A stretch of 64,000 nucleotides of DNA from the NCBI GenBank assembly GCA_002269645.1, contig NIVC01001600.1, forward strand, positions 1 through 64,000. Direction: 5' to 3'. The notes under the pieces are model-generated. The model saw only the letters and a list, made by a program, of their open reading frames with translations. It did not search any database and was not told where the DNA came from. The DNA is from Macrostomum lignano. Lineage: Eukaryota. Shown one piece after another: positions 3,202 to 64,000 of the stretch (the stretch's first letter is position 1; each line of letters begins with the position of its first letter). Made by a program: the position numbers and the translations under genes.

Positions 3202-5392
3202 ATGAACGTTGAGTGTAACAGCAAACGCAGTGCCCGCGACACGGACTCACCTCCGATTGCGAACTCAAAAAAAGCCAATCACCGAGACTCAGCTGGTCCA
3301 AGCCGAAGATCCGAACCTAAGACCATGCTGTCTCCATCAAACGCGCCGCTGCCCGAGACGCCTCCGCAAACCGGCACGTCCAAAGGTGAGCGGGCTGAGC
3401 CTTTGCCTCCCCCTAAAAGGGACAGTTTAGAGGTTAGAAAAGAACATGGTAAAACAACTATAATACGAATTCCAATAGCTGACAAGACTGATGAGAAAAC
3501 TGTCACATTGCCAAACAACAGCAACATCTGCTACTACCCGGTTGCTCTTAAGAGCTCGGAAAATCAAATACTCAAAATACTAACCGACGAAATCCAGGCC
3601 AAAAGCCTTTCACCATCTCACAAAAGGCCGTCCTGAAGCCCGCAAAATTGTATGGTTCAGGCCAGAATATAGCTACGGGGAACTAAGATTCCGGCCAATG
3701 ACGACTGGCACCCGTTGGTTACTAGTCTTGCTACTTGGCTGAGCGCTGAGTTTGGTCTACCCGTCTTCAACTCATGCCTCGTAAATTATTACAAAGATGG
3801 GTCCGTGCACATTCCTTGGCACTCAGACGATGAAGACGAACTAGGGGCTAATCCGACCATAGCCTCTATCTCTATTGGTGCCGCACGTGACTTCCACTTA
3901 CGAACCAAAGGCTCCACCAACATCGCTTGGTCCCAAAAACTCGCCAGTGGTTCTCTGCTGGTAATGGGGGGTGCGACACAGGCACACTTCCAGCACGCCG
4001 TCCTTAAGGACCTAAAAGTCAAAGAGGCAAGAGTAAATCTAACATTCAGGCTAACGTATGATAGCAGAATCCCACCTGATCCTGCTCCTGCTTCTGCTCT
4101 TGCAAACCCTTGCGTGCAGCCTCTTGACAACGATATCACCTGCGATCTGGACGACGAAAATTCGGTTCGTCGCAGAGCAGAGCAAGAAGCCGAAAATCTG
4201 AAAAAGATCAGATCACGTTCGAACAGCTGCACTTCGGGGCACAAATCAAGCACTCAGCAATCTCAAACAGCTAACCAGCTCACTGGCTCTCAGCAGTCAG
4301 CCACTCAGTCTAGCACCAAACAACACACTCAATCAGGCACTCAGCAACATTCAACAAACACTCAGCAGGCACACTCTGTCAAATCAGCCATCAGGTACAC
4401 TACAGTCAGCCACTCAGTCTAGCACTCTGCCGAAGCACTCAGCAACTCTGCAACCACATGCAAACAATCAGCAGACACTTCAGACACTCAGCAATCAGGC
4501 GACCAAACTCAACCACCTAACAACTACAAGCTGCCAGCTACTCAGCAACCTAACATTCACCAATCTAACCAATCTAGCCAACTAAACTCTACAACTCTAA
4601 ACTACCATCCTAAAACTAATAATACTCAAAAATCTACTAACTCAGCACCTGTCATCTTTGAAATCGACCAAGAAGGCAAAGATCCCATCAAATTCGAATG
4701 GTTTCTGAAAACAAATTTCCCAGACGTTCGCATCAGGTCGGTTAAGGACCTATACCATAGCTCCGGCTACATCGTGATTCCAGATCACCCTAAGGACTTC
4801 AACACACTATTAACAGCTATTCTCAAAATAAATAAAATTAATAACCACGAAGTCACGCGACGCACAGCAGCCAAAAGGCCAATAAGACAAGGAGATGATC
4901 AGGCGCGTGCTCCACTAAAATCACCAACAACGTACTCGTTTATCGTAAAACATGTGCCAATCACCGTAGACGCACACATGCTAGCCAAACACTTGGCAGA
5001 CTCAGAGCAGCAACTACCAATTGACGGCGCTGTGCGCATTGTCTCTAGGGCAACTGGTGCACCTACTCCGCACATCCGCCTCTTCACTAAGAGCAAGGGC
5101 ACGATGGAAAGATGCATCCAGCATGGAGTCTACCTTGGTTACAGCAAATTTAAATGCGAAGAGTCTATTAATTTAGCTCCGGTAAAAGCAATCCAATGTA
5201 AAAAATGTCAGAGATTAGGGCATCATGAAAACAGATGCACAGCAACCTACAGGTGTAACAAATGTGCGGGAGATCACTATTCTGCAGACTGCCCGAAAGA
5301 AAGCAAATTTAAATGCGCAAACTGCGGCGAAAGAACACCCAGCTTACTCATATAGATGTAGTAAAGTAAAGAAGCGAACGAAATTGCCATTA
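3202..5392 (+). pseudogene. LINE ORF1 copy 1: AlkB dioxygenase + Q/S/T-rich linker + RRM-like + 3xCCHC (frameshifts near 3620, 4420, 5328)
   Basis: AlkB: PEARKIVWF..YSYGG, NSCLVNYYKDG, WHSDDE, HAV, RVNLTFR. C-terminal part: FIVKHVP, CKKCQRLGHHENRC, CNKCAGDHYSADC, CANCG-EH. Confidence 0.9.
3622..4050 (+). CDS. AlkB (ALKBH2/3-like 2OG-Fe(II) oxygenase) domain, copy 1
   Basis: HSD (3820-3828), distal H in HAV, RxNLTFR all present. Confidence 0.93.
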
Positions 5393-7975
5393 CCCGCCTG
5401 GATAGCCGATCGGTTGTCGTCGCGCCGTCGTCCGCATTGGTCCGCGTTTGGTGGTCGATTTCCGGACAAATGCAGCTTTTCGTCCGTATTCATCCGGTTT
5501 AAGCTGCCGGACAAAGTAGCGGGCCAGTTTCCGGATCAGAGCCGGACAAAGTGGTGATTTTTTTACTTAATTGGTCCATTTTAGTCCGGAATTATATCCG
5601 CTTGTTTACCCGGACAAAAACCGGATGAAGCGTCGGATGACTTTACGGATGACTAGCCGGATGAATTGTCACTGTCGTCCGAAAAGTCATCCGCATTTTA
5701 ATCCGGGCTGTCGCCCGCCTAACAACCGGACGAAGAGCGGATATGTTTCCGGGTGATAGTGGAGCACGTGGAATTGAATAGTGGAAAATGGCACCTTTCT
5801 CCTACTTGTATGCCCACAGTTTGTAACACATGTTCCAGAAACAGCAGCACAACGTGTTCTATTTCTTATGCTCCAAGTTCTACAGAAAAATATACTTCTC
5901 CGTATGACATTTCCCACGTTCTGATTTTGATGGAGACTTCGATGTTGTTCGATGCCTTCGCATCTTTTGCATGTGTGCAACACATTAGATAGTACACTAT
6001 GTTAGATAGGGATCATAGAGGTCTTGGAAACAGCGGGTATTGTTGGACAAAATTGGTCTCGTCCGAGTTGTTACTGAAATGCAGAAATTCAGAAACATGT
6101 CGTCCATTCTATACGTGGATAGATGAATAGGTCACACAGCAGATAGTGCTACAGTGAATATGCGCATCTAGACATCATAAACCAACCCAATCTCTTTCAG
6201 TACTGCACGACTCGCAAACTGCATGGACAATTCAGATTTACCGCGCGGTTACAGCGGAGGCAGTACATGCGAGAGTACATGCGGCAGCGTGCGTTGGCCA
6301 ATTCAAATAGTCGACAAGAAGGTTCGCGATCACCTCTGCGTCCAACCGCAGGAACTTCTGCAGATGTCGACTCCGGCGAAGTCCAGTCCGGCGGCGCAGG
6401 CACCAGTGGACTGCTGCAGTCGTCGCAGCTGCAAGCGGATCCGCCTCTACATCTACAGTATCTCGATCTCGAGATGAGCAGTCTGTATACCTGCCTATAG
6501 ACAATCCAGAGTCCGACGACGGTGGCGCACAGGCCGATGGCCGCAATGGGGACCCGGTGTCGAGCTCTGACAGCACTTCGGACGGGGATTCTTCCTCTAG
6601 TGGTGAGTCCCAGTCAGAGAGTTGGCTTATCGTGGATTGTGGATCCATCCCAATGGCTCATGTTTGATACTTTTGTGTTACCTGCACGTTGCACTCACAC
6701 TGTCCACCGAACACATGCGCACTACGCTCACCACACACAATATATTCCTCCCAGGTTCGCAGTCTGTTGACGGCCAGAGCACAGACTCCGACAACGACGA
6801 GGACGTCCCGGGGTTTCCAGGAGTCAATTGGCACGACGCTCTGCCCGTTTCGCTCGGAGAGGCGATTTGGGAGGTCAGCTCCTGCGCGAGGAACTGAACC
6901 TGACAGTTAGCGGGACGACAAGGCTGCTTTCACTACTGCACAGGCTAGTACCCGACAACCGCCTTCCTCAGCACGGACGAACATTGCGTGAAACTTTGAA
7001 GAAGAGGGGAACAATCTCGGGGTCGTCAACATGTTACACTGTCCGCAACGACTGTTATCTACATTCCGAGCAGCGCTGCGATCCAGGAAATTCTAATTGT
7101 GCGCACTGTACGTCGGAAAATGTGGCCAACTTCTGGTTATTCGACATACCTGCGCAGATCCGAACATTCGTTGAATCTCGCGGTCTTCTACAGAGCGTAA
7201 CATTTCCGATTGAACGGCTTGCACTGGACGAAGAGAAGCTGCACTTTGCCAACAGCGAACTGTACAAGTCGTTTCTCGAGAACATCGAACCCGAGACTCG
7301 GAGCGACCTTACATACACCATCTGTGCAGACGGATTTCCTCTTTTCTGCACTAGCAATGTCGAGGTGTGCCCCGTCTATCTGAGTATTAACGAAGTGCAC
7401 GAGCGGCTGAAGCTCCGATTCGTGATGAAGTGTGGCGTGTGGGCCGGCAAGAAAAAGGTCCATGCCGCCGCCTTTCTGCCAATCGTCGTAAATGCACTGA
7501 ATACTCTGCGCTTCGATGGTGTACAGTATATCGACAGCCTCGGGGTTCAGCGTCGATTGCATCTGCATCCGCTAATGGCGCTGTTCGACGCTCCAGCGAG
7601 AGCGGACGCTCTGTGCATGAAGCGTTTCTCGGCTATCTACGGATGCGAGAAGTGCTACATCCGGACATCATTGCATCCATCAGGCCATGGACGAGTCTAC
7701 GGCGTCGGGGTTACTGACGCGATGCTTAATCAGGCCAGACGTCTAGGATGCGTTCAGACTGTAGTGCGGTCGACCAGCGACACTCACACTCTCGCTGAGC
7801 AGCACGCACAGCAGGGTGGCGACATTCGGACTGACGTCCTCGGTGTCCGTGGCCTGTCACCGCTGTCTCGACTGCACGGGTTTGACTTTGTCCGCGGCTG
7901 TCCACCGTGTTTCCTGCACCAGTTGTGCTCCGGCCTGGTACGCAATATTTTGTACCAGCTGTTCCTCTGGTACGG
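5393..7975 (+). mobile_element. CACTA/EnSpm-like DNA transposon, left part (right end lost)
   Basis: Starts CCCGCC exactly where LINE ORF1 homology stops; dense CCGGAC/CCGGAT subterminal repeats 5460-5755; transposase downstream. Confidence 0.75.
6828..7975 (+). CDS. CACTA/EnSpm-type transposase (main exon, truncated by Gypsy remnant)
   Basis: ICADGFPLF..VCPVYLSINE, FDAPARA..KRFSAIYGCEKC, PPCFLHQLCSG motifs typical of animal EnSpm/Mirage-like transposases. Confidence 0.85.
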
Positions 7976-10039: not shown

Positions 10040-12069
10040 TCACGACACAACACTTAGCAACCAACAGCTTCTCAGTTGTAGATTCTCCACACCTGAGGAC
10101 CTAGATAAAGCGGTTGATCTGCTAAATCAGTGCATTCATGACACCATTGAGGATGTTGTACCCAACCGGGACCCTAGGGAGCAGCTTCCCCCAGATATTA
10201 TTAACAAAATTAAGCATAGGAGGAAAATTAGAAAATTATTCAAAAAACTAGAATAGACGACTTCAGAGTTCAAGCCAATCAAGCAGCTAAAGAAATACGA
10301 AATGCCATACGTATGCATAGATATAGGAAATTCGAAGATCTATGCCACAAAATTGCTAAAACTAGTTACAAAAAAAACCCAAAAAATTTTGGATTGACAT
10401 CAAAAAGATGACAGGAGAAAGGTCCAAAATGATCAACTATCCCCTTCTAGTCTACAAGGATTCGCATGCCGAGACTGAGGCAGAAAAAGCTTCACTCTTC
10501 AGCGACTTTCTAAAAGATCAAATGCAATCTCACCCCAACCAAGACTCGCTTATCTACGAAAAAGTCAGCAAGTACAAAGATCATGAGATCTTCAAACCCC
10601 ATAAAAATATAATCGCGGCACTTTCATACCATAAAGAGCACGCGAACCCGATTGATCCAGATAAAGAAGATATCGAAAGCGATATCCTAAACATTACTGA
10701 CCAGGACGTGCTCTGGGAGAGCAGAAAACTTAGGTCAGGAGGAGCTCCCGGTCCGGATAGAATTCCTAACATGGTTTTGAAATATGGTCTCAGCCCGGAC
10801 TCCATCAGAGTGCTCGCAAAAATTTACAACTCTAGTTTTCTCATAGGATACTTCCCTAAACAATGGAAAAAGGCCATCATCAAGATGATCCCTAAACCAA
10901 ACAAATCCAAAAATCTCGTGGAAAGCTATAGACCCATCAGCCTAACCTCCTGTGTTGGTAAACTTTACGAGAAGATTCTAGCTAAAAACCTTAGAATTAT
11001 CTTAGAAAACCTAGGAATTATTAATGAGGAACAATGTGCCTACAGATTCGATCACTGCACATATGACAATATAGTAAGACTCACCGACGATGTGCTGAAA
11101 ATGCTTCAGTTGAGGCAGTACACGTTGGGGGTCTTCTTTGATGTCAAAGGAGCCTTCGATGGAGTCTGGCTGGACTACCTTAAATATAAAATCTGGAAAA
11201 GTAAAATCCCGCACAACATGACACGAATTATAGTTGGAGGAGCCCGGGGCGAGGTCTTTCAGCCAACGGCGGGTGTCCCGCAGGGTGGGGTGCTCTCGCC
11301 CCTGCTCTTTATCATCTTCGCTAGCTCTATACCCAAGCCCACTGACAGCAAGGTCCGCTTTAGTCAGTTCGCTGACGACTTAGCAGTATGGGCCTCTGCC
11401 AGAAAATCCACTATGTCCGCTAAAAGGCTTAACTCATACTTCATTGTCCTCAAAAAGTGGCTTGACAATTTGGGCATAGTCATCAATCCCTCCAAAAGTA
11501 AAGCCATTTCCTTTTTCAAAGCTAATGGGAACAAAACAGGTCCAGACGATCCTCCAATTAAACTTGGACAAGACAAAATCAAGTACTATGATTCCGTCAC
11601 CTTCCTAGGGATGGTTCTTGACAAACAGCTTAACTTTAGGGCCCATATCGACAAGGTAGCTTGGTCTTCGACTGCCAAAATGGCTGCGCTAGCTAGGATG
11701 GCTAAGAACTCCAGGATTTCGCAACTGGCTCTTCGCCTCATCTATAGATCTTACATTGAGAGCACAATGACTTACGGCGCTCCAGTGCTCATCAATCTAC
11801 TGGCATCCCTTGTCAACAAGTTACAAATTCTGCAAAATAAGGCTCTTCGCCTCTCTATAGATGCTCCGCCTTATACTAAAATCACATACTTACACCAGGT
11901 CACCAAGATGCCTATGGTTAAGGATCGACTCCTCAATCTTGCTAAAAAATGGTACAAAAAAGCCCTGGAGAGTGAAATCCATGGGTTCAAAAATGACACC
12001 AAAGAATAGGCCAGACCTGGGTTCAGGGTCCCCTTTACTACTAAACTCAGACAGATTACGCAAATGTGA
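10040..12069 (+). pseudogene. LINE ORF2: post-endonuclease linker + reverse transcriptase (Jockey-like, no RNase H); APE missing
   Basis: APGPDRI, YRPISLTSCVGKLYEK, FFDVKGAFDGVW, GVPQGGVLSPLL, QFADD, TFLGMVLD. Linker FSTPEDLDK..RDPREQLP matches 63190-63295. 36-bp deletion and premature TAG at 12007-12009 relative to the 54-56 kb copy. Confidence 0.92.
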
Positions 12070-22430: not shown

Positions 22431-23724
22431 GAAAATATTTCAAGACTTTTACTAATCCCTAATCAAATAAAATTAAGCCTTGCGGTCACTAAAGTTCTCA
22501 GCCAAGCCCATAATCCCAAGTGTTGAGGGAATAATTACGCTTTACCTGGCTCCGCTGCCCTGACGCTCCAGGTGAATCATTGGGCGCGATTAATGCCTTG
22601 AAATAAACTTTTTATAACGTGTAGCGCCAGTAGCAAAACTATAAATAAATAAACATTTTCTTGCTTCAAAAAGCAAGAAGTCCCCTCCCCTCCCGTCCGT
22701 CCCCTCCCCCAAGCCTTGCGCGCGCTGCCATCGTCCCGGCCGGTCTGTTTTCTGCTCTAAATTTGCTTCAAAACTACTCAGAGTAAGTTGATTGTAAATT
22801 CTATCTTCACTTTCTATTTTATTAAATTTATTTTTCTTCTCGATTTCCTCGGCCTATAGAATGTCTTAGGAACTTTTTTCTTTAGCTAGCTACCTGTCCC
22901 AGTCTCACCTGCCCTGAGACTCCCTCTCCCCTTCTTTGCTCTCTATTTATTTAATTTCGGGTTCTTAAGCTTTAGGGATCCTCTTCAAGGGTTGGGTCTA
23001 GGACGCGCTGTCCTCTGGTTTAGTTAAGTTATTACATTTCTTTCCTTTGTATTTTTTGCTCAATTCTTTGGCTTCGGCCTGGGGGAACCCCTGCTCTAAT
23101 TTTTTCTTAAATAGTCTCTTTTTGTGCATTTTTGCAAAATTAACTAGCAATTTGCATTTACACTATTTTTGATTCTAAGTAGTCTAAATTAGGTATTATT
23201 ATCTTTTCTTGAGTTAGCACATTAAAATTCTCTAAATTTTTTCTGATCTATTTCCTCTAATTTAGGAATTATTCTCTATTTGCCTACTTCTTAGCTCATT
23301 AGTCAGTAAGGGTTTTCTCGCTATTCTTTGCCTTCTTTATCTAAAATAATTATTTCGAACTATAATTACTTATATTTAAATTGCCGGTTTTCTTTTTCTT
23401 CTTCATTATTCTAAACGAGACAGTGTGTGCAAGGCTTGCGGACGTTATTAACCCGCTCTGACAATTGCTTGAACTGCTGACATTTACTTTGAACTGATTT
23501 ATTATATTAAATTGCTCTAAATTTATTTAGAACTGCCCCTGTTTTACTAGTTTTATAGCTGATTGGTCTCCCTGTTTTATATTGACCACTTATCTACCTC
23601 CATTAGAATATTGTTTTAATTAGTTAACTAGCATCGTCATGAGCACTATCAAAGAAACTGACATCACCGATAACGGGAAGAGGCCAGCGCGAGACACCTC
23701 GTCACCAGCTACCGCTGCTACTAC

Positions 23725-25978
23725 TTGTGGTGATCCAGCATAGCTAGCATAGGCTGCTCCTGGGATCCCCTCTTAGTCAGTTAGTGCTTGGGCTGCAGCA
23801 GTGGGAGCTGGGCATAGGGCTGTCCCTTCCTCCTCTTCCCTTGTGCAGGCTCAGGAGTGCAGCTGTCGCGGGACAGGGAGAGAAACTCTCTCCCCCTCTC
23901 CCCCTGGCGCAGTCTGCAATGGGCTAAAAATAGAAACATTAGTCAGTGGGATATTTCTCCCTTAGTACAGGCTTATTTAGTCAGCGGGAGTGAGAGCATA
24001 GCTCTCCGCCCGGGGTAGGCTCTCGTGGGGTCTTGGTTGCACTCCTTGCATGCGGCAACATGCAAGCAGTGTACCAGCAGGCCGTGCGGAGGCTGCATGA
24101 TGAGGCAGATGTCTTATGGGCATCTCCAAGATCGTTCCTGGCTCCGGGTAGTCCACGGAACTGCCATGGGATCTGCCACGGAACTGCCTCTGAGCTTCCC
24201 ATTGGCCCTGAGACCCCCGAATTTTAGTATAAATACAGAATAGGTGAAGGCCCAAAGAGACCATCCTCGTTCAGGAGACGATCTTCGTCCGCTTCGGAGA
24301 CCGCCTGCTTGGTTTCGAGCAAAGGCTAGATTCCTAGATGCTTTTCCTAGACGAACTAGCTTAGGCAGATCGCTAGACGTTTTTCCTAGGGATAACCTGC
24401 TAACAAACCTTTGTTGCAGCTGCCATTTGCTCAATAAGACTGCCGCAGGTCCTTGTGTCATCAGCCCGCCAGACCTTCAACACCGTCTGGACCTGGTCTC
24501 GTGGCCTACAACCTACACTGTTGGGCAACATCAATTGACGCACAGTACAGCTTAGGGCGTTTACTGCGACACCAGTGGAGTTATTAAACGATAATTTAGG
24601 ATCGGCCTGTGACCGTCATTCACATTAATAAACGTTTATCTGACTTGTGTTGTCTTATTTATTTTCTACTTATCAGTAGGCCTACCTAGGGATAACCTGT
24701 CGAGGATATCACTTGTAGACCTACAAGGTGGCAGCAACCCAACTACCAATACTCGGTTATTAACTAATTGTACTCTGTAGAGACTAAGAGGGGTTAATTC
24801 GGACCATAGTGCTAGACCACTCAGGCCAGCTACCGGCCGTGCTAGATAGCGAGGACAGACAGAGAAAGTAATAGGCAACAGCAGTAGTCACCAAGAGACG
24901 GGGATCCCCAAGGCCATTACATTGGTTACATTGGTGGGATCCACAAGGCAAAGAGCACAGCATTACACTGGTGGCAGCGGTGGGATATCAAGACCTACCC
25001 GACCACCCAGGGAAGTCCTTGTTCCATCTCGGCGAAAAAAGCAACGGCATTACATACTAAAAAGCCTAACTTGCGAGCCTCAGCTGGACCTGCCAACAAC
25101 AGAGCAACACCGGCCAAAAGGACATCTTTGCCTTGGTTTTGTCTCGCATAGAGACGACTAATCGCAGTCACTCCTGTGAAACTTGTCCCTGCCTGGCTGA
25201 AAGCTTGTAATGAGTGAGTAGGCTGGGTTGGAGGGTAATAGTGGATCGGGAAGGGCTGTGGGTAGCTGTATAGGAAGGCAGGCCTATACCTGTACCAAGG
25301 TGCTCTGACGGTATCCCTCAGGCGCCCTCTGAGCGTACAGCCAGCGACCCTATTAAAGCTGGAGTGTGCCAGAACCAGGACTGAGTCTGAGCAGGACGAG
25401 ACCGTTGGCACGGTCACTATAGAAATGGCGGGTTGGCGAAGCAAAGGGTGAAATAGTCCCGGCGAATAGCCCTCCTGCCGCTTCAAAGATAAGAGACTGT
25501 CTGGCAAGAGTACCCGGGGTTTAGTTGGGGGGAGGCTCCTTCGGGTTGCCACGGCCGTGGGGGCGGTCAATTGACCGGTTTTTGGCTTATCTAACCCTGG
25601 AGAAGGCACGGGCTTCCCTTATTGGTTCACTCAACCCCCTCTGGCCCCGGGGAGGTTTATGAATTGTACCCGGGGGTGGTGGGCGGTCGGCCCCAGCATG
25701 GTTGCCACGGCTCTAGGCCTTCGGGCCATCCCTAATAGGCTAAGGGGTCTATCTAACCTGGTTTTTGGGCACGGGCTCCTGACTGGTTCGTCGAACCGCT
25801 GTCACTGTCCCCCGGGGAGGTTTGGTTTTTATGATTCTGCCCTGTACAGTCCTCTATAGTCTAACTTGGCTTTTAGTGTACATAAGTACTCTCCCAATCT
25901 GGAACTCAAATATTTCTCTAGTGGCGTAAGAGCCTGCTCAATGGCTGAGGCGCCGTATTACTTATCTTAGTTAGTTAG
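23725..25978 (+). mobile_element. LTR-retrotransposon 5' fragment (LTR, PBS, untranslated leader; no gag/pol)
   Basis: TATAAAT near 24228, AATAAA near 24627, ...ATTACA-C-PBS at 24961-24986, then a GC-rich leader with internal repeats. Boundaries approximate. Confidence 0.6.
24969..24986 (+). promoter_or_regulatory. Primer binding site complementary to tRNA-Leu (AAG/UAG type) 3' end incl. CCA
   Basis: TGGTGGCAGCGGTGGGAT is the 18-nt reverse complement of AUCCCACCGCUGCCACCA, 1 nt after ...TACA. Confidence 0.85.
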
Positions 25979-26259
25979 TAAGGACATCTTTGCCTGATGT
26001 CTCTCCAGGATCAGCAGATGGCGGCTCTGCCTGCAGCCAGCCTCTGGCAGCGTGTTCTGACCTGAAATATGACATAAACAACTTGGCACTTTTAAGCATT
26101 CCCAAGCCAAACAGGACTAATGAAAAAACTGTAACTCTACTGCAAAACTGCAACATCACTTATGCGCCGAACGCGTTAAAAAGCTCAGAAACCACTCTCT
26201 TCAACATAATAATGAAAGACATCGCTCCAAGTGCCTACCACCACCACTCAAACGGAAAA

Positions 26260-26682
26260 CCGGAGGCCCGTCAGATCGCCTGGTTTGGGCCCAGTTACAC
26301 CTACGGTGGATCAAAAATCGAGGCCAATGACAACTGGCATGCTGCAATAGTCCGACTAGTCACGTGGCTCCACCTCGAATACAAACTGCCACTGTTCAAT
26401 TCCTGCCTAGTTAATTTTTATAAAGACGGCAACATCGGTATTCCATGGCACTCTGACGATGAAAAGGAACTTGGAGAGGATCCGATCATCGCCTCAGTGT
26501 CACTCGGAGCCGCCCGAGACTTTTAAGTTCGCTCAAAATCTTCTCCAACGAACATAGTATTTTCGCAAAAGCTAAGCAGCGGCAGCCTCTTAATAATGAG
26601 CGGTGGTACTCAGCGTTATCTACAACATACCGTACCAAAAGATCCTAGATGCAAGGAAATGCGAATTAACCTAACATTCCGA
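26260..26682 (+). CDS. AlkB (ALKBH2/3-like) domain, copy 2 (single nonsense codon)
   Basis: PEARQIAWFGPSYTYGG, NSCLVNFYKDG, WHSDDE, QHTVP, RINLTFR. Confidence 0.93.
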
Positions 26683-28270
26683 TTAACTAAAGACGACAGA
26701 ATCTCCGCCGTGGACACTCTGACGCCTAATCCGTGCGTCAGGTTCACTTCTGTTTCTGTTTCTGTTTCATGTGACCTGGACGACGAGGAATCCATCAGGC
26801 GCAAGGCAGAAGAGGAGGCCGCCAACTTAGAAAAAATTAAGCTAAATTCTACAAACAAGGACTTCAAAGCAAAATCAGGCAACAAAGTGGCAGACGCCTC
26901 CGAAGCACAGGCAGTCACAGCCCAAGCGAATCCTCAAGCATCAAGCAATCAAACCAAGGCATCAAGCAATCAAAACCTAGCAACACAGCAATCAAGCATT
27001 CAAGACACAGCTACTAAGCAAACTAATAACCAAGGCACTGAACAACAACCAAGCAACCAAAGCACCCAGCAACAAACAGGAAAAAGTAAACCGGCAGCCA
27101 GTATAGCTGACCAGGCAACCAACAACAACAAAGCTAACCAAGAAGAAAAAGAAAAAAAACGTAGACCGGCGGCCAGTACAGCCGACCAGGATCAGAACAG
27201 CAGTCAATCCAACTACAAGAAAATCACTCCTGTGATCTTTGAAACCGCACCCGAGGCTAAAGATCCAATTAAATTTGAATGGTTCTTGAAACAGAACTTC
27301 AAAAACACCAGGATCCAATCAGTTAAAGACCTGTACCATGGCGTTGGCTTCTGTGTATTCGCAATGGACGAAAAAGGCTTGAATGCTCTGCTCACAACAC
27401 CAATGGTTGAAACTGAGATCAACGGACAGACCGTCACCCGCAGACTGCCTAGAAAAAGGCCAATTAGACAAGGCGATGACGAAAACCGACCACCACTCAA
27501 ATCGCCACAAATATTATCCTTCATCGTAAAGAACGTGCCATTGGCAGTTGACGCATCTGAACTACCCAAGCATCTTCAAGATTCTATCAATCAGCTACCA
27601 ATCGACGGCGCCACTAGAATTATATCCAAACAAACCGGACGACCAACTCCACTAATTAGATTATTTACAAGAAGCAAGCCAACCCTAGAAAGATGCCTAG
27701 ACAAAGGGATATACCTGGGACATGTACTGTACAAGTGCGCGCCGTCACTCACAGCGCCATCAGTCCAAGAGGTGCGCTGCACGCGCTGCCAGGGCTTTGG
27801 TCATCAGCAATACCGGTGCACCAACAATCCAGTCTGCAACAAATGTGCTGATGAACACCACTCTGCAGAATGTCCTAAAATAAAAGAATTAAAATGTGCC
27901 AACTGCGGTGGAGAGCACACGTCGTATTCTCACAAATGCCCAGTAGCTATTAGGGCACATCGCCTGGCAACTGAAAGGGAGCGCGAGAGGGTGCACAGTC
28001 TACGACAACAGTATGACTATGACTGCTATCAGCAAAACTTACCAGAAGCCTTTCCGAGGCCGCAACAGTTCTCCTACTCTGCAGCAGCAAGTCGATCAGC
28101 TGTGACAAGCCAACTGCCTCCAAAGTACAACGCGTGCCCGGCTGGTCCCCCTGCAGCGGTCTCGGCGATGGCCTCTGCAGCGGTTGACCCGGCAACCGAG
28201 TCTGCATCCCACCCCGCGGCGGTCCAGGCGATGGCCTCCGCGGAGGTCGTCCCGGTACTGGCCCCTGCAG

Positions 28271-30565
28271 GGTAGTAAAAATTAGGTTTTAACTTATTTT
28301 TTGAGAAACAACTTTAAAATTTAATTAATTCATTTTCGATCTGATTTCTTTAATTTAAGATTAATTCTCATTCTGCCTACTTTTCGTTAAATAGTTAGTT
28401 ACAGGTTTTTCGCTATTCTTTACTCTTTATATTTAAAAATTTAACTCGATTACAATTTTGCCGGGTTTCTTTCACTTTCTTTTCTTTCAATCGAGACAGT
28501 GCGTGTGAGGCTTGTGGACGTATTTAACTGCTCTGACAACTGCTTTGAAGTGCCACTATCTACCACTTCATTTGAACTGCTCCATTTATTAACTGTTTTA
28601 CATTTTTTATTGAACTGCCCTAGTTTTACAAGTTCTGCATTCCGTTTTAAATTGCTGAACTGACTCCTAGTTTTACTTTGACTCTTTACCTCTAATAGCA
28701 TTATATTAATTAGTAAACTTACTCAGCATTGTCATGAGCACAATTAAAGAAGAAATGGAAGTCACTGACAACGGAAAGAGGCCAGCTCGAGACACTTCGT
28801 CGCCGGTTGTCGCTTCAAACAAAAAACCAATACTCGAGCCTCAGCAGGACCTGAAGACCATCCTGAAGAACATCCTTGCCTGAATCCTCTCCAAGGTCTG
28901 CAGATGGCCGCTCTGCTGGCAAGCAGCCTCAAACAGCGTATCCTGACCTGAAATATGATGCGACTGACATGGCACTCCTTAGCATTCCTAGGCCAAACAG
29001 AAGCAACGAGAAAACAGTTAACTTACTGCAAAATTGCAACATATTATTCAATTGCAACATACCTATGCACCCAATGCTCTAAACGGCTCCGAGACAGCTC
29101 TCTACAAGGCAATAATGAAAGGCATTGCACCTAGCGCATTCCACCACTGCACTAACGGAAAACCTGAGGCCCGTCAAATCGCATGGTTCGGGCCCAGTTA
29201 CTCCTACGGAGGTACTAGAATCGAAGCTAATGACAACTGGCACCCAATCATAGCTCGTCTTGTGACTTGGCTGCATTTAGAATTCAGGCTGCCACTTTTC
29301 AACTCATGTTTAATAAACTTTTACAAGGACGGCACTATTGGAATACCTTGGCATTCTGACGATGAAACAGAGCTCGGCGAAGACCCGGTAATTGCCTCTC
29401 TATCTCTAGGAGCCGCTCGTGACTTCCAGGTTCGCTCCAAATCATCACCGGCGAACATCATGTACTCACAAAAGCTTGGCAATGGCAACCTCCTGGTAAT
29501 AAGTGGTGCCACCCAGCGCCTTCTGCAGCACTCAGTGCCAAGGGATCCAAAGTGCAAAGAGATGAGGATAAATCTTACGTTCCGCCATACCAAGGACAAT
29601 AGAATTCCTGCCGCTGACGACGCTCTGCCGCCCAACCCGTGCGTCAGGTTCACTCAAAACGCGATATCCATCACTTGTGACCTAGACGATGAGGACTGTC
29701 AAACGCAGGGCAGAAGAGGAGGCAGTCAATCTGGAGAGAGTCAGGCAAAACTCTGCAAGCAAAAGCAACCAGGACCAAGTGGATAGGAAGTCACGCAGTC
29801 AAGATCAAACAGCAAAGCAACCAGGCAAACAGGACATCAAGCAACAGCCAAGCAATCAGGACACGAGGCACCAACTAGATCTGCAGCCAACAGGCAACAT
29901 GAGCAACCAGCAACAAAGTCAAAATCAGCAATGTGGGCCGGCGGCCAGTGCGGCCAGCCAGGCTAAAAAAGAAAATACCAGTAAACCGGCGGCCAGTACA
30001 GCCGACCAGGCAGAAGTAAAAACCAGTAAACCGGCGGTCAGTATAGCCGACCAGGATACTAACTCTGAAAACAATAGACCGGTGGCAAGTACAGCCGACC
30101 AGGACACCTCAAATCAGCCAAGCAATCAACACACTGAATCAACTCAACAGAAGAATCACAGGAAAAAAGCACCAGTGGTCTTTGAAGTGCCTCCTGAGGC
30201 AAAGGATCCAATAAAATTCGAATGGTTCCTCAAGAAGAATTTCCCAGAGGTGAGGATTCAATCTGTCAAAGACTTATACCACGGAGTCGGCTACTGCGTC
30301 TTTGCCACCAATGAGCAAGACATGAACACTCTACTAACGAGACCACTCAAAGAGCAAGAAATTAACTGTCAAACAGTCACGCGCAGACTTCCGAGAAAAA
30401 GGCCAGTCCATCAGGGTGACGACAACACCAACCGAAACCCATTGAAGACTCCAGCAATTCATACCTTCATAGTCAAAAATGTGCCTCTAGCTGTGGATGT
30501 GGCTGAAATTCCGAAATGTTTGCAAGACTCCGAAGATCAGCTTCCCATAGATGGCGCAACACTAG
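28271..30565 (+). mobile_element. AlkB-bearing LINE copy 3 (partial 5' UTR + 3'-truncated ORF1), fused head-to-tail to copy 2
   Basis: UTR homologous to 23180-23638; ORF1 start MSTIKEEMEVTDNGKRPARDTSSP at 28734; frameshifts near 29045 and 29695; truncated after LPIDGAT. Confidence 0.88.
29163..29585 (+). CDS. AlkB (ALKBH2/3-like) domain, copy 3, uninterrupted
   Basis: PEARQIAWFGPSYSYGG, NSCLINFYKDG, WHSDDE, QHSVP, RINLTFR. Confidence 0.93.
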
Positions 30566-31681: not shown

Positions 31682-32703
31682 TTAGGCATTAGCTGCAGAA
31701 ATAAAGTTCAGGAGTCGACTGCGTGGATCGTTGCCTTGCAATGGATCGCCCTCATTGGCGATTGGTTCGTACATAAATTCTTCCGTGGGTTGCAATTCTT
31801 CATGCCGATTGTTAGAGGCCACAATGTAATTCTGCAGTAGTGTACAGCACTTAATGATCTCACATGCGTAGACAGGGTCAACTCGCAACTGTGTAGATAG
31901 GCAGGCAAAGCGCTGCTTTAGAACGCCTAAGTAGCACTCGACTAGTCGTCTCGTTTTTGCATGAACAATGTTAAACTGATTCTACGATTGGGGTGATAAG
32001 CCACTGCTTTAGACTGTATCCGCTATCTCCCAATATTAATGCATTGGGAAATGGTCTCCAGCCTCCTTCAAAGGCGTCGCTCATCGTGCTGTTGTTCAAT
32101 ACACGTTTGTCATTGAGTCTCCCAGGCCAACGCGTAGACACAAAATGCCTGAAGCTGAGGGCCAGCCACTACCATGCAATTTATAGAGTGGTTACCGTGT
32201 CTGTCAACGAACTGATCTTCATCAGTAACCGGAGCTCGGATCTTGATCAGCGTACCATCGACACAGTCAGCAACGCATGGCATGCCACCGACTCTGTAGA
32301 AATCTTGTGCTATCTGTGCTCGCTTCTGATTGCATTCCGGCCAACGGACCAGCTCGTCGAATAGTCTGTTATTCAATGCAGTAACGACGCGCCGGACAGT
32401 ACGACATAGGGTGGCCTTTGAGACGCCATGCGCGTCTCCAACAGCATGATAGAAACTTCCGCATGCGAGGAATCGGAGCGTACTCAGTAATTGCTCTCGT
32501 ACAGTCAACGATCCTTGTCGGACAGTTGCGTGGGTCAAGGCAGGTCCAATAATTTCCAACAAATCTTCAACTTGATCAGATGAAAGCCGGAATTTCTCCA
32601 CGAAATCTATGCAATGGGGCTGAAAGTTGATTCGTTCTTTGAAGATCCGCACTGCATAAGCTTCATTGAGAAGAGCATCTTCTTCTTCACTGTCGCTAAA
32701 CAT
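31682..32703 (-). pseudogene. Harbinger (HARBI1-like) DDE transposase, frameshifted
   Basis: EKFRLS, LRFLACGSFY..VGDAHGVSKAT, CVDGTLIKI, HSINCMVV, LGDSGY, RRLVECYLGVLKQRF. Confidence 0.9.
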
Positions 32704-33152
32704 GCTTTATCCAAGTATTCTATCCTATATAAGTTCTAGTTCATCCAAGTAGACTGTTGACAAGAGCTTAGGCCACTTGTAGACTTGTCATTGACAAGTG
32801 GGACCCTTCGATAGTGCTCAAGCTAAATCTGTGTTATCTATGGCCAAAATAATGGCAAAAACGGCTTGACAAATTGTCACTTATCACTTGTAACTTGTTA
32901 AATTGTCATCCCTCCTCATGAAACGCTATAATTGTGAAATTTTACACTTGTCCCTTGTAAATTGTCAACTTGTCACTTGTACTTGCTTCATGAAATCGGC
33001 CCCTGATAAAGAGAGTATAAAGAGAGCTGTTTTAAAGAGAGCTGATAGTATGTCCCTTGCATTGAAATGTCTATGGCCCTTCCTACGTTTTTGAGTGTCG
33101 TAGAATGACTGCGAAATATTTTGTGCGAAAGCTTTAACCCTCAACAAACAGC

Positions 33153-36090: not shown

Positions 36091-36238
36091 CAGAATTTTG
36101 TCCTATTGTTTTATTAGTACATAAGCCCAGAATTAAAATGAGAATTCGATTCCTAATCCCACTCCCTAAGAATTCTTTTCATTTTACAGGATTCGTCCCT
36201 TGCTTATTGGCCACCCCGAGGGGGGCGCTAGATTGCTA

Positions 36239-36640
36239 GTGACGCTTCTATGATTGTTTACATGACGCTTCTATGATTTTTACATGACGCTTCTATGATT
36301 TTTTACATGACACTTCTATGATATTTTGCATGACGCTTCTATGATTGTTTACATAACGCTTCTATGATTTTTTAAATGACGCTTTTATGATTGTTTACAT
36401 GGCGCTTCTATGATTGCTTACATGACGCTTCTATGATTGTTTACATGACGCTTCTATGATTGTTTACATGACGCTTCTATGATTGTTTACATGACGTTTC
36501 TATGATTTTTTACATGACGCTTTTATGATTTTTACATGACGCTTCTATGATTGTTTGCATGACGCTTCTATGATTGTTTACATGACGCTTCTATGATTGT
36601 TTTACATGACGTTTCTATGATCTTTTACATGACGCCTCTA
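36239..36640. repeat. 22-24-bp minisatellite (CATGACGCTTCTATGATTGTTTA), ~17 copies
   Basis: Direct inspection. Confidence 0.95.
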
Positions 36641-54410: not shown

Positions 54411-56233
54411 TTTTTTTTCATTTCATTTGGTAAGTAGGGGCTATCAAGGGGCCCTGCGCGTCAGCCCTGGGAAGGGCTATTACGCAATTAATTTATTTTT
54501 GGTTTCTAGTCTGAAAGATACATTGAGTATTTTATTCGAGTTTGAGGAAGTAAAACAAATATTTTCTAATACAATAATGACATTCTAAAAAATTAAAACA
54601 AATAAAAGGGTTCAACTAATCAATAGAGAGACAATTTAAAACAAATGATTGAATTTGAGTAAAACAGATAAATATGATTAGTAAACCTAAAACAAATATT
54701 GACGTGTAAATATATACAGTGAACCACAAAGCAAAAAAATTATTTTAGGTGAATTGGTTAATAAAAAATGGAGGCCAGATTCTTTACTACTAAAGAGAGT
54801 AGGTAGTCGCCACTGTGAAATAGGATCCTGCCGAAGTTTGTCAACCTTACGAAAACTAAGGATTCCCTGGGAGGACTAAGAGAATGTCGTAAGTATAGAG
54901 GTCCCTGCCCGCAGGGGAGAGTTTTGCAAACATGTTCGAATCGGCTAACCAGACAGCTGCACCCCAACAGAGCAAGCCCAACCGGTAAGTCTAACGTTCA
55001 GATATTTAGTCTTAATAATACTAATAGCTAGTGGACCTGGCTCCACAATAAACAGTATTTTGGGTGTATAGTGTAAAAACATGCTTGAGAAAGAGACTAA
55101 AAAAGTAATACTGTGAGAGGGTATAAACGTAAAAACAGGGTGAGATTAGTATTGTACTTTGAATGACAAGTGGTAAGCATAGCATTAGTATACCCGACCC
55201 CGGACTGAGGTGCTCGAGTTTTAGATAGAGTCATTTTAGCGTTATTCATCTCGTAATTTGTCTGAGTTTAGTAGTAAAGGGGACCCTGAATCCTGGCCTG
55301 GCCCATTCTTTGGTGTCATTCTTGAACCCATGGATTTCACTCTCCAGGGCTTTTTTGTACCATTTTTTAGCATGATAGAGGAGTCGATCCTGAACCATGG
55401 GCATCTTTGTGACCTGGTGTAAGTATGTGATTTTAGTATAAGGCGGAGCATCTAAAGAGAGGCGAAGAGCCTTATTCTGCAGAATTTGTAACTTGTTGAC
55501 AAGGGATGCCAGTAGATTGATGAGTACTGGAGCGCCGTAAGTCATTGTGCTCTCAATGTAAGATCTATATATGAGGCGAAGAGCCAGTTGTGAAATCCTG
55601 GAGTTTTTCGCTATCCTAGTTAGCGCAGCCATTTTGGCAGTGGAGGACCCAGCTACCTTGTCGATATGGGCCCTAAAGTTAAGCTGTTTGTCAAGAACCA
55701 TCCCTAGGAAGGTGACGGAATCATAGTACTTGATTTTGTCCTGTCCAAGTTTAATTGGAGGATCGTCTGGACCTGTTTTGTTCCCATTAGCTTTGAAAAA
55801 GGAAATGGCTTTACTTTTGGAGGGATTGATGACAATGCCCAAATTGTCAAGCCACTTTTTGAGGACAATGAAGTAGGAGTTAAGCCTTTTAGCGGACATA
55901 GTGGATTTTCTGGCGGAGGCCCATACTGCTAAGTCGTCAGCGAATTGACTAAAGCGGACCTTGCTGTCAGTAGGCTTGGGTATAGAGCTGGCGAAGATGA
56001 TAAAGAGCAGAGGCGAGAGCACCCCACCCTGCGGGACACCCGCCGCAGGCTGAAAGACCCCGCCCCGGGCTCCACCAACCACTAGCTCCACGGATCTGTC
56101 ATCCAGATAATTTGCTATAATGCGTGTCATGTTGTGCGGGATTTTACTTTTCCAGATTTTATATTTAAGGTAGTCCAGCCAGACTCCATCAAAGGCTCCT
56201 TTGACATCAAAGAAGACTCCCAACGTGTACTGC
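54411..56233 (-). mobile_element. 5'-truncated copy of the same LINE family (RT C-half + 3' UTR + tail)
   Basis: TSD GCAAAATATCTATT at 54399-54412 and 56232-56245 (12-14 bp allowing for microhomology); ORF nearly identical to the 10408-12009 protein. Confidence 0.95.
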
Positions 56234-56792
56234 AAAATATCTATTATATTATTAGGATAATCTTACATTCAATAGATTCCGGCTAAAATTAGATTAATTC
56301 AGTTACTTTCTGTCTGTCTACTTCTCAAAGTAGTGCATTTTGCGTCTGATTTATCAAAAAGAAGTGACGAATTATATACATATAAAGGAAATAAGGAACG
56401 ATGGAAAAGGGAAACATCGGTAGGATACTTGCTGTTCATATTAGCAGCGTTTGAAATAATGCTTTAATAACGACGAAACATTCAAGATTTCAGATCTCAA
56501 GTTCATTTCTTTAGTCTAAAATTCTAAATGTGGGATGAGTTTCATTTACATGTAGCTAGGCTAAACAGAATAACATTTGACTGATTCAGGAGCAAAAATC
56601 GGCGTACCAGCTGTAATCTGTCTCGTTATTGGAAGCAAAACTCCTAGTGAAAGCTGGACATGCAGCAGTATAAATACAAATATATAAGTACAAAAAGTAC
56701 AAAATATATATACAAAATATAAGTACAAATATAAAATACAAATAACAGTCTAGAATTCCAAGTAACCATGTCATTTTAAATTCCTTGCAGCC

Positions 56793-61467: not shown

Positions 61468-61823
61468 ATTTTCGATTAGAATATTAATTATATGTGTAAA
61501 AGAGTTTTTGAGATCTACATAGCATTTATGGAATGGAATAACTATTCCATTTAGTTTCATAAGCAATTTTGCTCTTTTTCCTTTTTTTTTATGTTATCAT
61601 TTTCATGAAATTATTGTGTAAAAATATGCTGTACTTCTGTTTGTACTACTTTTCATTTTTAAAAAACAAATTCATGTTACTGTTATTGTTTGCTGTTTTT
61701 TCCAGATACCATTCGTCACTTTAAGATGTAGGTTTTTAATGCATTTTTGAATTATAAAAACAGTGAAAGTTTATATTTTTTGCTGAGCAACTGGGTACTA
61801 GTGATAGGATAGATAGTCAGTTC

Positions 61824-62321
61824 TTGGCCGAGACTTTTGGTGTGCCGGGGCCACTGTCCTACGTCGACATGACAAGACCAAGACCAAGGCCTACTCTCGG
61901 CCCCATTGTCTACTCCAATCGTGCCGCTGCCGCTGCCGCTGCTGCTGCCCAACCGAACATGGTGACCAATCAGACCGCGCTTCCTGCTGACAACGCCGTG
62001 CCGGTAATGAGCAAGCAGTCTGCACCACCGACCAGCAGCGCTGAGCCAGCCCAAGCTGAACCAATAACGGACAATGCTGCCCCCAACGTTGTAACCGGTG
62101 AGAGGGGCTTCACGCAGAATGATGTGCTCGGGGTGGTACTTGAGGCACTCAACCGGATTATGGAGATCGAACCGGGGCGTCTGCTCACTGCCTGGGAAGC
62201 AAGCCAGCTTGCTATTCAGGTAGTGACAGAGGTCCTGGCGACCTTCTTGAATCCCGGAAGGGTGCCTGCTGCCAGGGCGGGTGAAGCCAAAGCCACTTTG
62301 GTGAGCGGAGGCGGATCCTAA
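61824..62321 (+). pseudogene. Probable LINE ORF1 C-terminus (5'-truncated)
   Basis: Lies directly upstream of ORF2; has an LSYVDMTR motif and Ala/Pro-rich tract like the post-knuckle FSYSAAASR region of copy 2. Confidence 0.55.
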
Positions 62322-62365: not shown

Positions 62366-63295
62366 ATGGCTTTCAATAGTAAAAATTCCAATAGCGCACT
62401 GAAAATTGGTCACCAAACTGCAATAAACTTAGCAACAAAATGCACGAGATTATTATGTGGTTGCACAATTACAATATAGACATTGGTCTTTTCTCCGAAA
62501 CTGATCTCAGAGATAAGGACAAGTTTTATGTACAAGGCTACGCTGTTATCAGATACGACACTCCTGACTTCAGGAGAGGTCTGGCAATTGCTTATAAAAA
62601 TACCTTAAATGTTTCGAACGTTAAAAAATTTTATGACAACTCTAACCATGAGTTTATTAGCCTCAATGTCACTCCGAACAATAACCCCAGCAACACTCTC
62701 AGGATTTCCCTTATTTACAGAGCTCCCAATCCTGACCAAATCAGCACTGCACTGCTTGAGCAGCTGCTCTCCCAACCTAGATCCTTACTTAAAGGAGATC
62801 TCAACTGTCGCCACTCTATGCTGGGCGGTGACAGTGTAGAAAACTTCCCAGGGAAACAACTGTATGAATGGTTTGATAACCATCCGGATCCCCCCTTCAT
62901 CCTAAACTCCTTTGGTGACTGCACCAGGATTAATAATAGAGGGGGCAACATTATTGGTAATGTCCTTGATCTAGGCATCTGCTCCCCTGACCTGATTAAC
63001 TCTGTCAGTGATGTCATTGTTGGCGATGATCTCGACAGTGACCACCTACCCATTATTGTTAAAGTTTTTATTGATCCCAACTCCAAGGCTAAACCAAAAC
63101 CACCCAAAAGCTACTGGCACACGGATTGGGAGGCTTTCAGATACGTTCTCCAAGACAAACTAGAAAACTGCAGTATGACTCGATCCCGTATCTCCACTCC
63201 CGATGAACTTGACAAAGTGGTTGATAAACTCACGGAAAAAATACAAGAAACAATAGAGGAGGTAGTCCGTAACAGGGACCCGAGAGAACAGCTAC
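62366..63295 (+). pseudogene. LINE ORF2 N-terminus: APE endonuclease + linker (1-nt frameshift near 62415)
   Basis: LKIGH-NCN, FSETDL, IYRAP, GDLNCRH, VLDLGI, DSDHLP; linker homologous to 10080-10200. Confidence 0.92.
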
Positions 63296-64000
63296 CCCGA
63301 CATAGTAGCTAAGATCAAAAACAGAAGTAACTCTACTCTTTCTAGTATGTTTTTTTTGCTAAGCACATACTTTTTCCGCTCGTTTTTATTCAGAGGCACT
63401 GACTCGAACCTATAAGAGGAATCCTATCAGCCATCAGCAGATGGAGGGAGCTGCCAGGAGGGCTCTAAAAGACGCTACCGATCGTCCCAGCAGCCCAGCC
63501 CAGCAGCACAAAAGTAAAGCATCTGAGAGGCAGATGCGCCGATGGTCGAAACGACAAAATTCAGCCATCAGATCGAAGCAGCTGCAACAGAAGAGACAAC
63601 GATTTGATGTCGATGATTCAGTGTTCTTCACTGACACTGAGGAATCCCCAGCCTGAGGCTTGTGCGGTAATTATTTGCAACAATTTATATTCATGAGATT
63701 TTAGTCCCACTTATTCACGTGTAGATTCATATGATATTTACATGTATTAGGTTGCGATCCCCATCATGCACATATGCATAAACTTCAGTCACTTTACTAG
63801 CATTTACTAAAGATGAAGCTTGCGATAGCTGCTGGTCGTAACGCATTATTAGTACTGAATGGTTTATATACTTGCATTGAAAGGCAGAATTTTTCAGGAA
63901 GTTACGCAAAGAGTACGCTCGCTTCCTCACTGATTTGCCTTCTGGGCGAGTTTTGACTTTGATAAGTTTCAGCGTTAATCCATTTTAATTTCTGAATTCC
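63296..64000. mobile_element. Probable third CCC-ended CACTA-like element, running off the window
   Basis: CCCGACATAGTAGC begins where LINE homology stops; plus-strand EGAARRALKDATDR exon and a convergent minus-strand transposase-like C-terminus (63727-63930). Confidence 0.45.

Follow-up and report, generated by a model that had tools for sequence, protein, structure and literature searches.

A 64,000-nucleotide stretch of the genome of the flatworm Macrostomum lignano (contig NIVC01001600.1, positions 1 to 64,000, forward strand; hereafter the window) contains three broken copies, A, B and C, of an open reading frame with an N-terminal AlkB domain. Judged from its sequence and modelled fold, the domain is an ALKBH3-like 2-oxoglutarate- and Fe(II)-dependent (2OG-Fe(II)) dioxygenase of the ALKBH2/3 group, and it very probably belongs to the first open reading frame (ORF1) of a long interspersed nuclear element (LINE). 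That the domain has been under purifying selection is close to certain. The reading preferred here, with a probability of about 0.52, is that this ALKBH3-like domain on the LINE ORF1 protein (ORF1p) would remove 1-methyladenine (m1A) and 3-methylcytosine (m3C) from the element's RNA or single-stranded DNA. The three copies and their parts are:

28735..30561, forward strand: ORF1 of copy C, running from its ATG through a short N-terminal arm, AlkB, a short helix, a linker and the first RRM to the start of the second
29154..29585, forward strand: AlkB domain (2OG-FeII_Oxy_2) of copy C, Pfam PF13532, 96.1 bits
29301..29387, forward strand: 29-codon block of copy C, from the codon comparison
28272..28734, forward strand: AT-rich leader on the 5' side of copy C; 23179-23552 matches it at 70% identity (386 columns)
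25975..28272, forward strand: main part of copy B ORF1, with AlkB, linker, two RRMs, three CCHC knuckles and the start of an Ala/Pro-rich tail
26398..26484, forward strand: 29-codon block of copy B, from the codon comparison
26524..26526, forward strand: TAA stop in the AlkB of copy B, between H-x-D and the distal His
27217..27774, forward strand: two RRM-fold domains of copy B, from an AlphaFold model and Foldseek
27775..27954, forward strand: three CCHC zinc knuckles of copy B, from sequence, profile match and hhalign
3202..5400, forward strand: ORF1 of copy A, a more distant subfamily, with ATG, AlkB (~3500-4050), linker, two RRMs and knuckles

Each copy is damaged in its own way. Copy C has frameshifts near 28860, 29043-29060 and 29694 and is cut at 30561; a 17-nt duplication in it is absent from contigs of three of four sequencing runs. 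Copy B has one in-frame stop, insertions in its N-terminus and a cut at ~28270. The TAA is absent from sibling contigs of three of the four runs, and the fourth has no depth there. Copy A has frameshifts at 3598-3675, in the lid, a stop at 4420 and a cut near 5400, and it is 55% identical over residues 1-717 to P0010, an unbroken M. lignano gene model of 938 amino acids.

Evidence for selection comes from codon comparison of copies B and C. The preliminary description counted 9 identical, 17 synonymous and 3 non-synonymous codons in the 29-codon block, and a recount returned the same figures. The three replacements are V/I, N/T and K/T, and third positions hold 19 of the 23 base differences. 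When 23 differences were scattered at random with the transition share as observed (200,000 trials, 105,283 of them stop-free), no stop-free scattering gave three or fewer non-synonymous codons (minimum 7, mean 14.1), which rules out an artefact of frame or composition. The block is nevertheless a favourable pick: three or fewer replacements occur in 9 of 151 sliding 29-codon windows, with a median of 6, and synonymous codons outnumber replacements in 138 of the 151. The unbiased figure is that for all 178 ungapped codons, which divide into 60 identical, 80 synonymous and 38 non-synonymous, as against a mean of 89 replacements and a minimum of 71 in 5,000 trials of neutral scatter.

Across the 147 codons of the Pfam AlkB span the counts are 54 identical, 65 synonymous and 28 non-synonymous (dN 0.11), and the maximum-likelihood (ML) dN/dS ratio, omega, is 0.028 by our own pairwise GY94 code rather than codeml, with twice the log-likelihood difference (2dL) against omega = 1 at 169. 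Only 20 of 64 four-fold sites in AlkB are identical between B and C; synonymous sites are thus saturated, and omega is bounded as far below 1 rather than given a precise value. NG86 dS is infinite in most parts, and ML t reaches its bound in several comparisons with copy A, whose omegas are not quoted. The RRM part (133 codons: 38 identical, 59 synonymous, 36 non-synonymous) has a dN of 0.19, and amino-acid identity is 119/147 in AlkB and 97/133 in the RRM part, a difference that is not significant (Fisher p = 0.12). The low-complexity linker, an internal control, has an omega of 0.64, not different from 1. On the AlkB span copy A gives 32 identical, 56 synonymous and 48 non-synonymous codons against B, and 44, 43 and 50 against C. 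No sign of omega above 1 was seen in any part of ORF1 in pairwise GY94 comparison of the three copies. The expectation of a low AlkB ratio comparable to that of the RRMs is thus borne out by pairwise comparison of the copies (omega ~0.03; dN 0.11 versus 0.19), and a ratio near 1 over the full alignment was not seen.

Close siblings of copy B, represented by contigs from the sequencing runs, differ from it mostly silently, with some decay. Among 40 of 101 differences, the AlkB part shows 11 synonymous and 8 non-synonymous changes, and its catalytic core 8 and 3. As all three copies in the window are now broken, purifying selection must have acted on their ancestors.

The residues expected of an AlkB enzyme are all in place. 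PF13532, with a cut-off of 31.2 bits, matches copy A at 103 bits, copy B at 97.9 when read through its stop, and copy C at the 96.1 given above. All three copies retain 7/7 of the cofactor residues, that is, the H-x-D...H iron ligands and the N-x-Y and R-x5-R that bind 2-oxoglutarate, and the earlier statement that the catalytic residues are invariant stands. In copy C the codons are at 29172 (lid Arg), 29205 (lid Tyr), 29316 (N), 29322 (Y), 29352 (H), 29358 (D), 29529 (distal H), 29565 (R) and 29583 (R). In 12 element AlkBs, a set that excludes the fragment P0140, all seven cofactor positions are invariant versus 26 of 166 other columns (Fisher p 5e-6); the lid Arg and Trp are invariant in element AlkBs, and the lid Tyr is present in 11 of 11 readable rows. 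From this conservation the domain is likely to be catalytically active in live elements.

The AlphaFold model of the copy C domain (pLDDT 92) consists of a double-stranded beta-helix and a nucleotide-recognition lid. Its best Foldseek match is human ALKBH3 (8jnk; TM 0.82, rmsd 1.9). ALKBH3 and ALKBH2 both fit with a TM of ~0.8, and ALKBH5 and E. coli AlkB with ~0.6. A sequence search of the PDB returned 16 matches, with ALKBH3 at 100 bits and ALKBH2 at 59, and ALKBH5 was not among them; by these matches and by the fold comparison the domain is not closest to the ALKBH5-type N6-methyladenosine (m6A) demethylases. The F1 hairpin (model strands 23-29 and 32-42) has a short, polar tip, T-N-G-K, with T/S-N-G-K/R in the window family. 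ABH2 needs a hydrophobic V/F wedge for duplex DNA, and E123/D124 on the F1 hairpin of ABH3 act as a single-strand gate (PMC2965238). Neither sequence nor model shows the V101/F102 wedge at the hairpin tip; with the lower bit score, this rejects identity as an ALKBH2. Filing the domain as an ALKBH3 orthologue was also rejected, because the E123/D124 pair is missing.

Human ALKBH3 (2iuw, 8jnk, 8jnr, 9ncz) and the host ALKBH3, P0162, share with the element domain the fold (TM ~0.8), the cofactor ligands, the lid Arg/Trp/Tyr, the segment W-[FY]-G-x-Y-x-Y and the segment N-x-x-W-H-P. The element AlkB differs from them in its 33-40% identity, its shorter lid hairpin without the acidic pair and its fusion to ORF1p. 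It also lacks the loop insertion before the last strands, and its residue is Pro/Gly at the site of the Asp that precedes W-H-S-D in mammalian ALKBH3.

AlkB, two RRMs and three CCHC knuckles share one reading frame, with AlkB at the N-terminus. It is followed by a short helix, from its sequence a probable coiled coil, a linker rich in Q/S/T/N, as seen in copy C, the two RRM folds and the three knuckles. The RRMs emerged from the fold alone; neither Pfam nor the PDB profile search nor hhalign against P0008 picked them up. The copy B model contains two beta-alpha-beta-beta-alpha-beta units, and the top Foldseek matches of this region are tandem-RRM proteins (E ~1e-6), with TM values of only 0.25-0.29, probably because of domain orientation. 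The knuckles, three in both copy B and P0010, match retroviral nucleocapsid knuckles by profile (E 6e-6) and the knuckles of P0008 by hhalign (98%). In general, type I ORF1s of LINEs have one or more RRMs directly upstream of CCHC knuckles (PMC4120745). By its modelled RRM-RRM-3xCCHC architecture the carrier protein is a type I LINE ORF1.

The connection to the second open reading frame (ORF2) comes from 5'-truncated pieces elsewhere in the window:

61767..62321, forward strand: C-terminal tail of the ORF1 family in a 5'-truncated copy, 55% identical over 185 columns to P0010 residues 756-936 (E 1e-46)
62395..63312, forward strand: APE endonuclease at the start of ORF2, Pfam PF14529, 43.7 bits (cut-off 27.4)
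10053..12009, forward strand: ORF2 linker and reverse transcriptase (RT), Pfam RVT_1, 122 bits
12010..12905, forward strand: 3' untranslated region (UTR) of ~900 bp with an AAATG/A-rich tail
54421..56262, reverse strand: second 5'-truncated RT and 3' UTR with the same tail, 86% identical over 1,848 nt to 11115-12891

The APE domain begins 73 bp behind the ORF1 tail and is cut near 63300, and its end overlaps the start of the RT piece (59% over 46 amino acids, E 1.5e-10). Since the tail of P0010 corresponds to 61767-62321, APE follows it and the end of APE corresponds to the start of RT, the AlkB-bearing ORF1, APE and RT are linked by homology, and in one element AlkB-ORF1 would be followed by APE and RT. 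Both RT pieces end in the AAATG/A-rich tail and begin at different points, as 5'-truncated dispersed copies do; their codons are 228 identical, 21 synonymous and 9 non-synonymous. No RNase H match was found in the RT piece at 10053..12009. A search for RT homologues among longer proteins gave one match at 27% and no clade.

The closest named relatives are M. lignano gene models (P0003, P0010, P0004 and P0011); one stretch of P0011 is 88% identical to the tail of copy B. Others are among the best 150 matches of a profile search of 1.84 billion representatives. Of these, further AlkB-RRM-knuckle fusions, unbroken and 757-962 amino acids long, come from Logan contigs (P0134, P0135, P0136 and P0137), and P0138, P0143, P0282 and P0284 form a distant M. 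lignano family of the same layout. In P0139/P0283 the AlkB lies in a different long protein, and P0140 is a fragment. UniRef names the relatives “Fe2OG dioxygenase domain-containing”, without transposon context. Between fusion groups identity is 32-44% in AlkB and 27-41% in the RRM-knuckle part, and fusions at this distance keep all seven cofactor residues and the lid residues. The two identities correlate (r 0.90 over 45 pairs of 10 proteins, the pairs not being independent).

In the Atlas, clusters of long eukaryotic AlkB proteins occur, two of which have a GDSL esterase in most members, and ctenophores are the commonest phylum among the few members with a recorded phylum. As the esterase is a known ORF1 domain, the AlkB-GDSL clusters may be a second ORF1 type with AlkB, as read from cluster descriptions rather than from sequences or DNA. 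P0283 has 1,012 amino acids, an AlkB of the same clade and no RRM or knuckles; its features resemble the AlkB plus GDSL esterase clusters (61 and 103 members, score 0.93), and Pfam finds no esterase in it. The Atlas feature search gave no usable match for P0010. A scan of viral contigs yielded three pattern matches and no relatives. Among the 80 of 530 confirmed loci examined from metagenome contigs, all were stand-alone AlkBs of 147-305 codons, none with RT, APE or RRM-knuckle neighbours. P0005 and P0006 are unrelated NADAR and AlkB fusions (PF08719 + PF13532).

A careful tree was built from 40 rows (11 element AlkBs, 10 ALKBH3-like animal rows and 19 others) after two near-duplicate element rows, one long-branched animal row and 41 others had been dropped from 84. 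In it the element AlkBs make up one side of a branch with 100/99 support. Elements and the ten ALKBH3-like rows are separated from the 19 others at 92/91, and the elements are not nested within the ALKBH3 rows. The quick tree of all 84 rows supports the element group at 96 and the wider group at 83, there including two unassigned rows. Labels are tool-based for P0157 (ALKBH3-like) and P0162; those of the other eight animal ALKBH3 rows, and the element labels of P0139 and P0140, are readings of the sequences. P0162 is the M. lignano host ALKBH3 (175 bits to ALKBH3, 94 to ALKBH2). Because the elements form one clade with the host ALKBH3 outside it, at 36-40% identity, the copies are neither recent captures nor host paralogues. 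The preliminary description had likewise argued against a recent passive capture, and low omega and saturated divergence agree; separate host paralogues, which it had named as a possible contrary source, are rejected. The donor was likely an animal ALKBH3.

The history of the carrier is less simple. On a tree of the RRM-knuckle part the AlkB-bearing ORF1s are not one clade; the tree has three changes, long branches meet in it, and a single origin was recovered in 0% of 200 bootstrap trees. The AlkBs of P0010 and P0004 agree at 95% identity and their helices at 93%, but their RRMs at only 59%; P0004 and P0011 are gene models and could be chimeric. The absence of an AlkB clade on this tree and the P0010/P0004 mismatch indicate a reticulate rather than a purely vertical history, and the AlkB module was probably swapped between, or lost from, ORF1 lineages. 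Modules of ORF1 have been exchanged between LINE lineages (PMC4120745). Thus long-term maintenance of AlkB, as claimed earlier, is true of the AlkB lineage, and does not extend to ORF1 lineages that probably swapped or lost the module. Its description as functional cargo is similarly divided: the conserved catalytic site suggests function, but the domain is an in-frame part of ORF1p and not free cargo.

The proposed mechanism starts from the properties of the carrier. ORF1p binds and coats the element's own RNA, and m1A and m3C block base pairing and stall reverse transcription. Since ORF1p coats the RNA, its AlkB would travel with the template, held on a flexible linker of 120-200 residues along the RNA and as far as the insertion site. 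There it would demethylate m1A and m3C in template RNA or single-stranded DNA during target-primed reverse transcription. Because these lesions block reverse transcription, their removal would yield more complete insertions, which would be the source of the selection seen. The lineage would go back to one old capture, probably of an animal ALKBH3, and would then have been inherited while modules were exchanged or lost. The broader proposal, that animal LINEs own an old AlkB lineage that was captured once, fused to ORF1p and passed between ORF1 types while repairing or unmarking the element's RNA template within the particle, in the manner of plant RNA viruses, is put forward tentatively, at slightly less than even odds.

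Several observations weigh against the demethylation of element nucleic acid by a captured ALKBH3. The host has its own ALKBH3 (P0162), so that the element's need for one is inferred only. ORF1s with the same core and without AlkB exist (P0142, P0146, P0163 and P0170, among the best 150), and AlkB is thus dispensable for such an ORF1. The hairpin tip is without the acidic E123/D124 pair by which ABH3 is held to single strands, so its strand preference may differ from that of ABH3. With respect to origin, the ALKBH3 grouping (92/91, and 83 in the quick tree) lies under the tool's star threshold, and the trees covered neither animal ALKBH2 nor viral AlkBs. Element AlkBs are 32-42% identical to a bacterial AlkB, as high as to P0162 (32-40%), and the 120 near-length matches listed are mostly unnamed or bacterial. 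Finally, AlkB-ORF1 and ORF2 do not occur together in any one copy of the window, and each of the three copies is broken.

Four other explanations account for parts of the same evidence. The enzyme could be active in counter-silencing, erasing a regulatory mark of the host (m6A, m1A or m3C) on element RNA or on other RNAs such as tRNA, and not random damage. Such a role has been proposed for the AlkB of an orchid Gypsy element, which demethylates m6A in vitro (PMC9289625), and an arms race would be consistent with the long branches and the swapped modules; fusion to ORF1p would bring the enzyme to element RNA, exactly as in the repair reading. The domain is, however, ALKBH2/3-like and not ALKBH5-like, and no part shows omega above 1, which makes counter-silencing improbable overall, though the foremost alternative. 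For m1A and m3C it differs from template repair in the source of the methyl groups alone and is indistinguishable by sequence. Less probable again is repair on the DNA side, in which the domain would remove 3-methylcytosine (3mC), a DNMT by-product, from methylated copies or from the new insertion, so keeping copies transcribable and tolerated. DNMT1, DNMT3 and ALKB2 are all still present in Macrostomum lignano, and 3mC is a product of DNMTs (PMC9246332). By TM-score the model is matched about as well by ALKBH2 structures as by those of ALKBH3, and the acidic pair that excludes duplex DNA from ABH3 is missing. Yet the ABH2-type wedge is also absent, and CpG observed/expected is 0.65-0.80 in the copies and 0.82 across the window, which gives no sign of heavy methylation. 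ORF1p is, moreover, mainly bound to RNA.

The remaining two explanations concern whether the domain is an enzyme, and whether its carrier is a LINE. Low omega is expected of any folded domain in an essential open reading frame, the RRMs included, and inactivated AlkBs occur in viruses (PMC2553587), so AlkB might persist as a nucleic-acid-binding or structural module of ORF1p. The invariance of all seven metal and 2-oxoglutarate ligands in 12 sequences, against 26 of 166 other columns, makes a non-catalytic role quite unlikely. Alternatively, the copies might be a family of host genes, either domesticated ORF1-AlkB or paralogues of ALKBH, or belong to a non-autonomous element with ORF1 alone: no copy in the window has ORF2 behind it, B passes directly into C, contig depth, a poor measure, suggests few near-identical copies of B and C, and M. 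lignano gene models exist for these proteins. Against this stand three intronless, independently broken copies among other repeats within 64 kb, an ORF1 tail 73 bp before an APE domain, a true host ALKBH3 as a separate gene and the type I ORF1 architecture, and a carrier other than a LINE is accordingly very improbable.

AlkB in mobile elements is already known from an orchid Gypsy and from plant RNA viruses; the LINE ORF1 carrier is the new part. The Phalaenopsis Ty3/Gypsy element (Gypsy_Pa_2799) is likewise a retrotransposon with a fixed AlkB whose ligands are intact and which was kept over subfamily divergence (PMC9289625). It is a long terminal repeat (LTR) element with AlkB as a separate ORF2, an ALKBH5-type m6A demethylase, recent and confined to one orchid genus (PMC9289625). 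In contrast, the window element is a non-LTR element of an animal host, and its AlkB is ALKBH3-like, an in-frame N-terminal part of ORF1p and present in lineages at 32-44% identity. The AlkBs of plant RNA viruses (Flexiviridae and others) are also fused to a protein that handles the parasite's own RNA and have ABH2/ABH3-like lid residues (PMC2553587), as in the window element. Viral AlkBs repair m1A and m3C, prefer RNA and spread by recombination (PMC2553587). The plant virus domains sit in a replicase polyprotein with no DNA stage, and kinship to the element clade lies outside the coverage of the trees.

Among LINEs, the Jockey/CR1/L2 group includes a type I ORF1 subtype with an RRM-RRM-3xCCHC core, some members having an N-terminal PHD (PMC4120745); the window element has the same core. 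Type I ORF1 LINEs likewise combine an N-terminal accessory domain, shuffled ORF1 modules and an ORF2 with APE and RT (PMC4120745). The accessory domain of the window element is AlkB, whereas those named in PMC4120745 are PHD, esterase, zf/lz and transposase-22. Its main text contains none of the words AlkB, 2OG or oxygenase, nor does PMC6338049, which treats accessory domains of retrotransposons. No case of AlkB in a LINE ORF1 was found in searches of the open full-text literature; subscription journals, Repbase Reports and Dfam lie beyond that coverage, and an earlier description there is quite possible.

Purifying selection is expected in an active element; unusual is the domain on which it acts. 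An ALKBH3-like demethylase would add a nucleic-acid-modifying activity to ORF1p, which is known as an RNA chaperone with PHD or esterase domains as additions. If the proposal is true, there would be an undescribed class of ORF1, of RRM-knuckle type in flatworm-like hosts and possibly of esterase type in ctenophores and others. It would also offer a direct way to learn if methylation damage to RNA sets a limit to retrotransposition. The in vivo importance of RNA repair by ALKBH3 is a long-standing question (PMC2553587). An enzyme kept through saturating divergence in a laboratory flatworm, with AlkB-less relatives as natural controls, would make it testable.

The 5' ends of copies B and C are further complicated by displacement and insertion:

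23179..23740, forward strand: 5' leader and first ~33 codons (ATG 23640) of the same subfamily group
25134..25979, strand not assigned: ~850-bp high-copy insertion in the N-terminus of copy B ORF1

The former is 77% identical to copy C over 105 nt at the ORF start and 70% in the leader, and is probably the displaced 5' end of copy B. The ~850-bp insertion is flanked by a 16-bp target duplication (25118 and 25980); it has a (TTAG)n end within 25118-25995, and contig depth at its 3' end is tens of times that of the LINE copies. Another insertion of ~1.2 kb (23740-24980), resembling an LTR or solo LTR, interrupts the ORF1 start. The leader of copy C starts exactly at the cut point of copy B ORF1, and at 28230-28320 the two abut without a gap. 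The remainder of copy B ORF1 was not found elsewhere in the window, and the junction reflects either insertion into the element's own family or recombination/deletion. Comparison of 23179-23740 and 25981-26070 with 28272-28960 shows B and C to be more similar in the leader (70%) and first 30 codons (10 of 13 four-fold sites identical) than at AlkB four-fold sites (20/64), which reflects either nucleotide-level constraint or a mosaic. At all three starts (3195-3204, 23630-23642 and 28720-28737) a T-rich tract is followed by an AG 4-8 bases upstream of the ATG, perhaps the acceptor site of an intron in the leader. In contigs of three runs copy B also occurs in a form that lacks 721 bp across both RRMs (27165-27887).

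Remains of other elements, identified partly by Pfam and partly by eye, lie at 8294-9770 (reverse strand), 42399-43160, 47782-49614, 6771-8066, 32110-32706 (reverse strand), 34443-36124 and 57421-59012. They comprise LTR-element pieces (gag/protease-like and integrase), a CACTA/tnp2-like transposase (DUF1258, Transposase_21) and, near 6771, another like it, a Harbinger-like DDE_Tnp_4, a stretch of Penelope-like RT/GIY-YIG and one more frame that resembles a transposase. An RPA70-type OB domain at 13614-14195 on the reverse strand (REPA_OB_2, 51.5 bits) is possibly Helitron cargo or a host exon. Tandem repeats include three 563-bp units at 98-99% identity (17023-18715), 42-44-bp units at 12997-13215 and a 23-bp minisatellite at 36234-36647, for which inverted arms at 36650-36804 and 37206-37360 are given as flanking.

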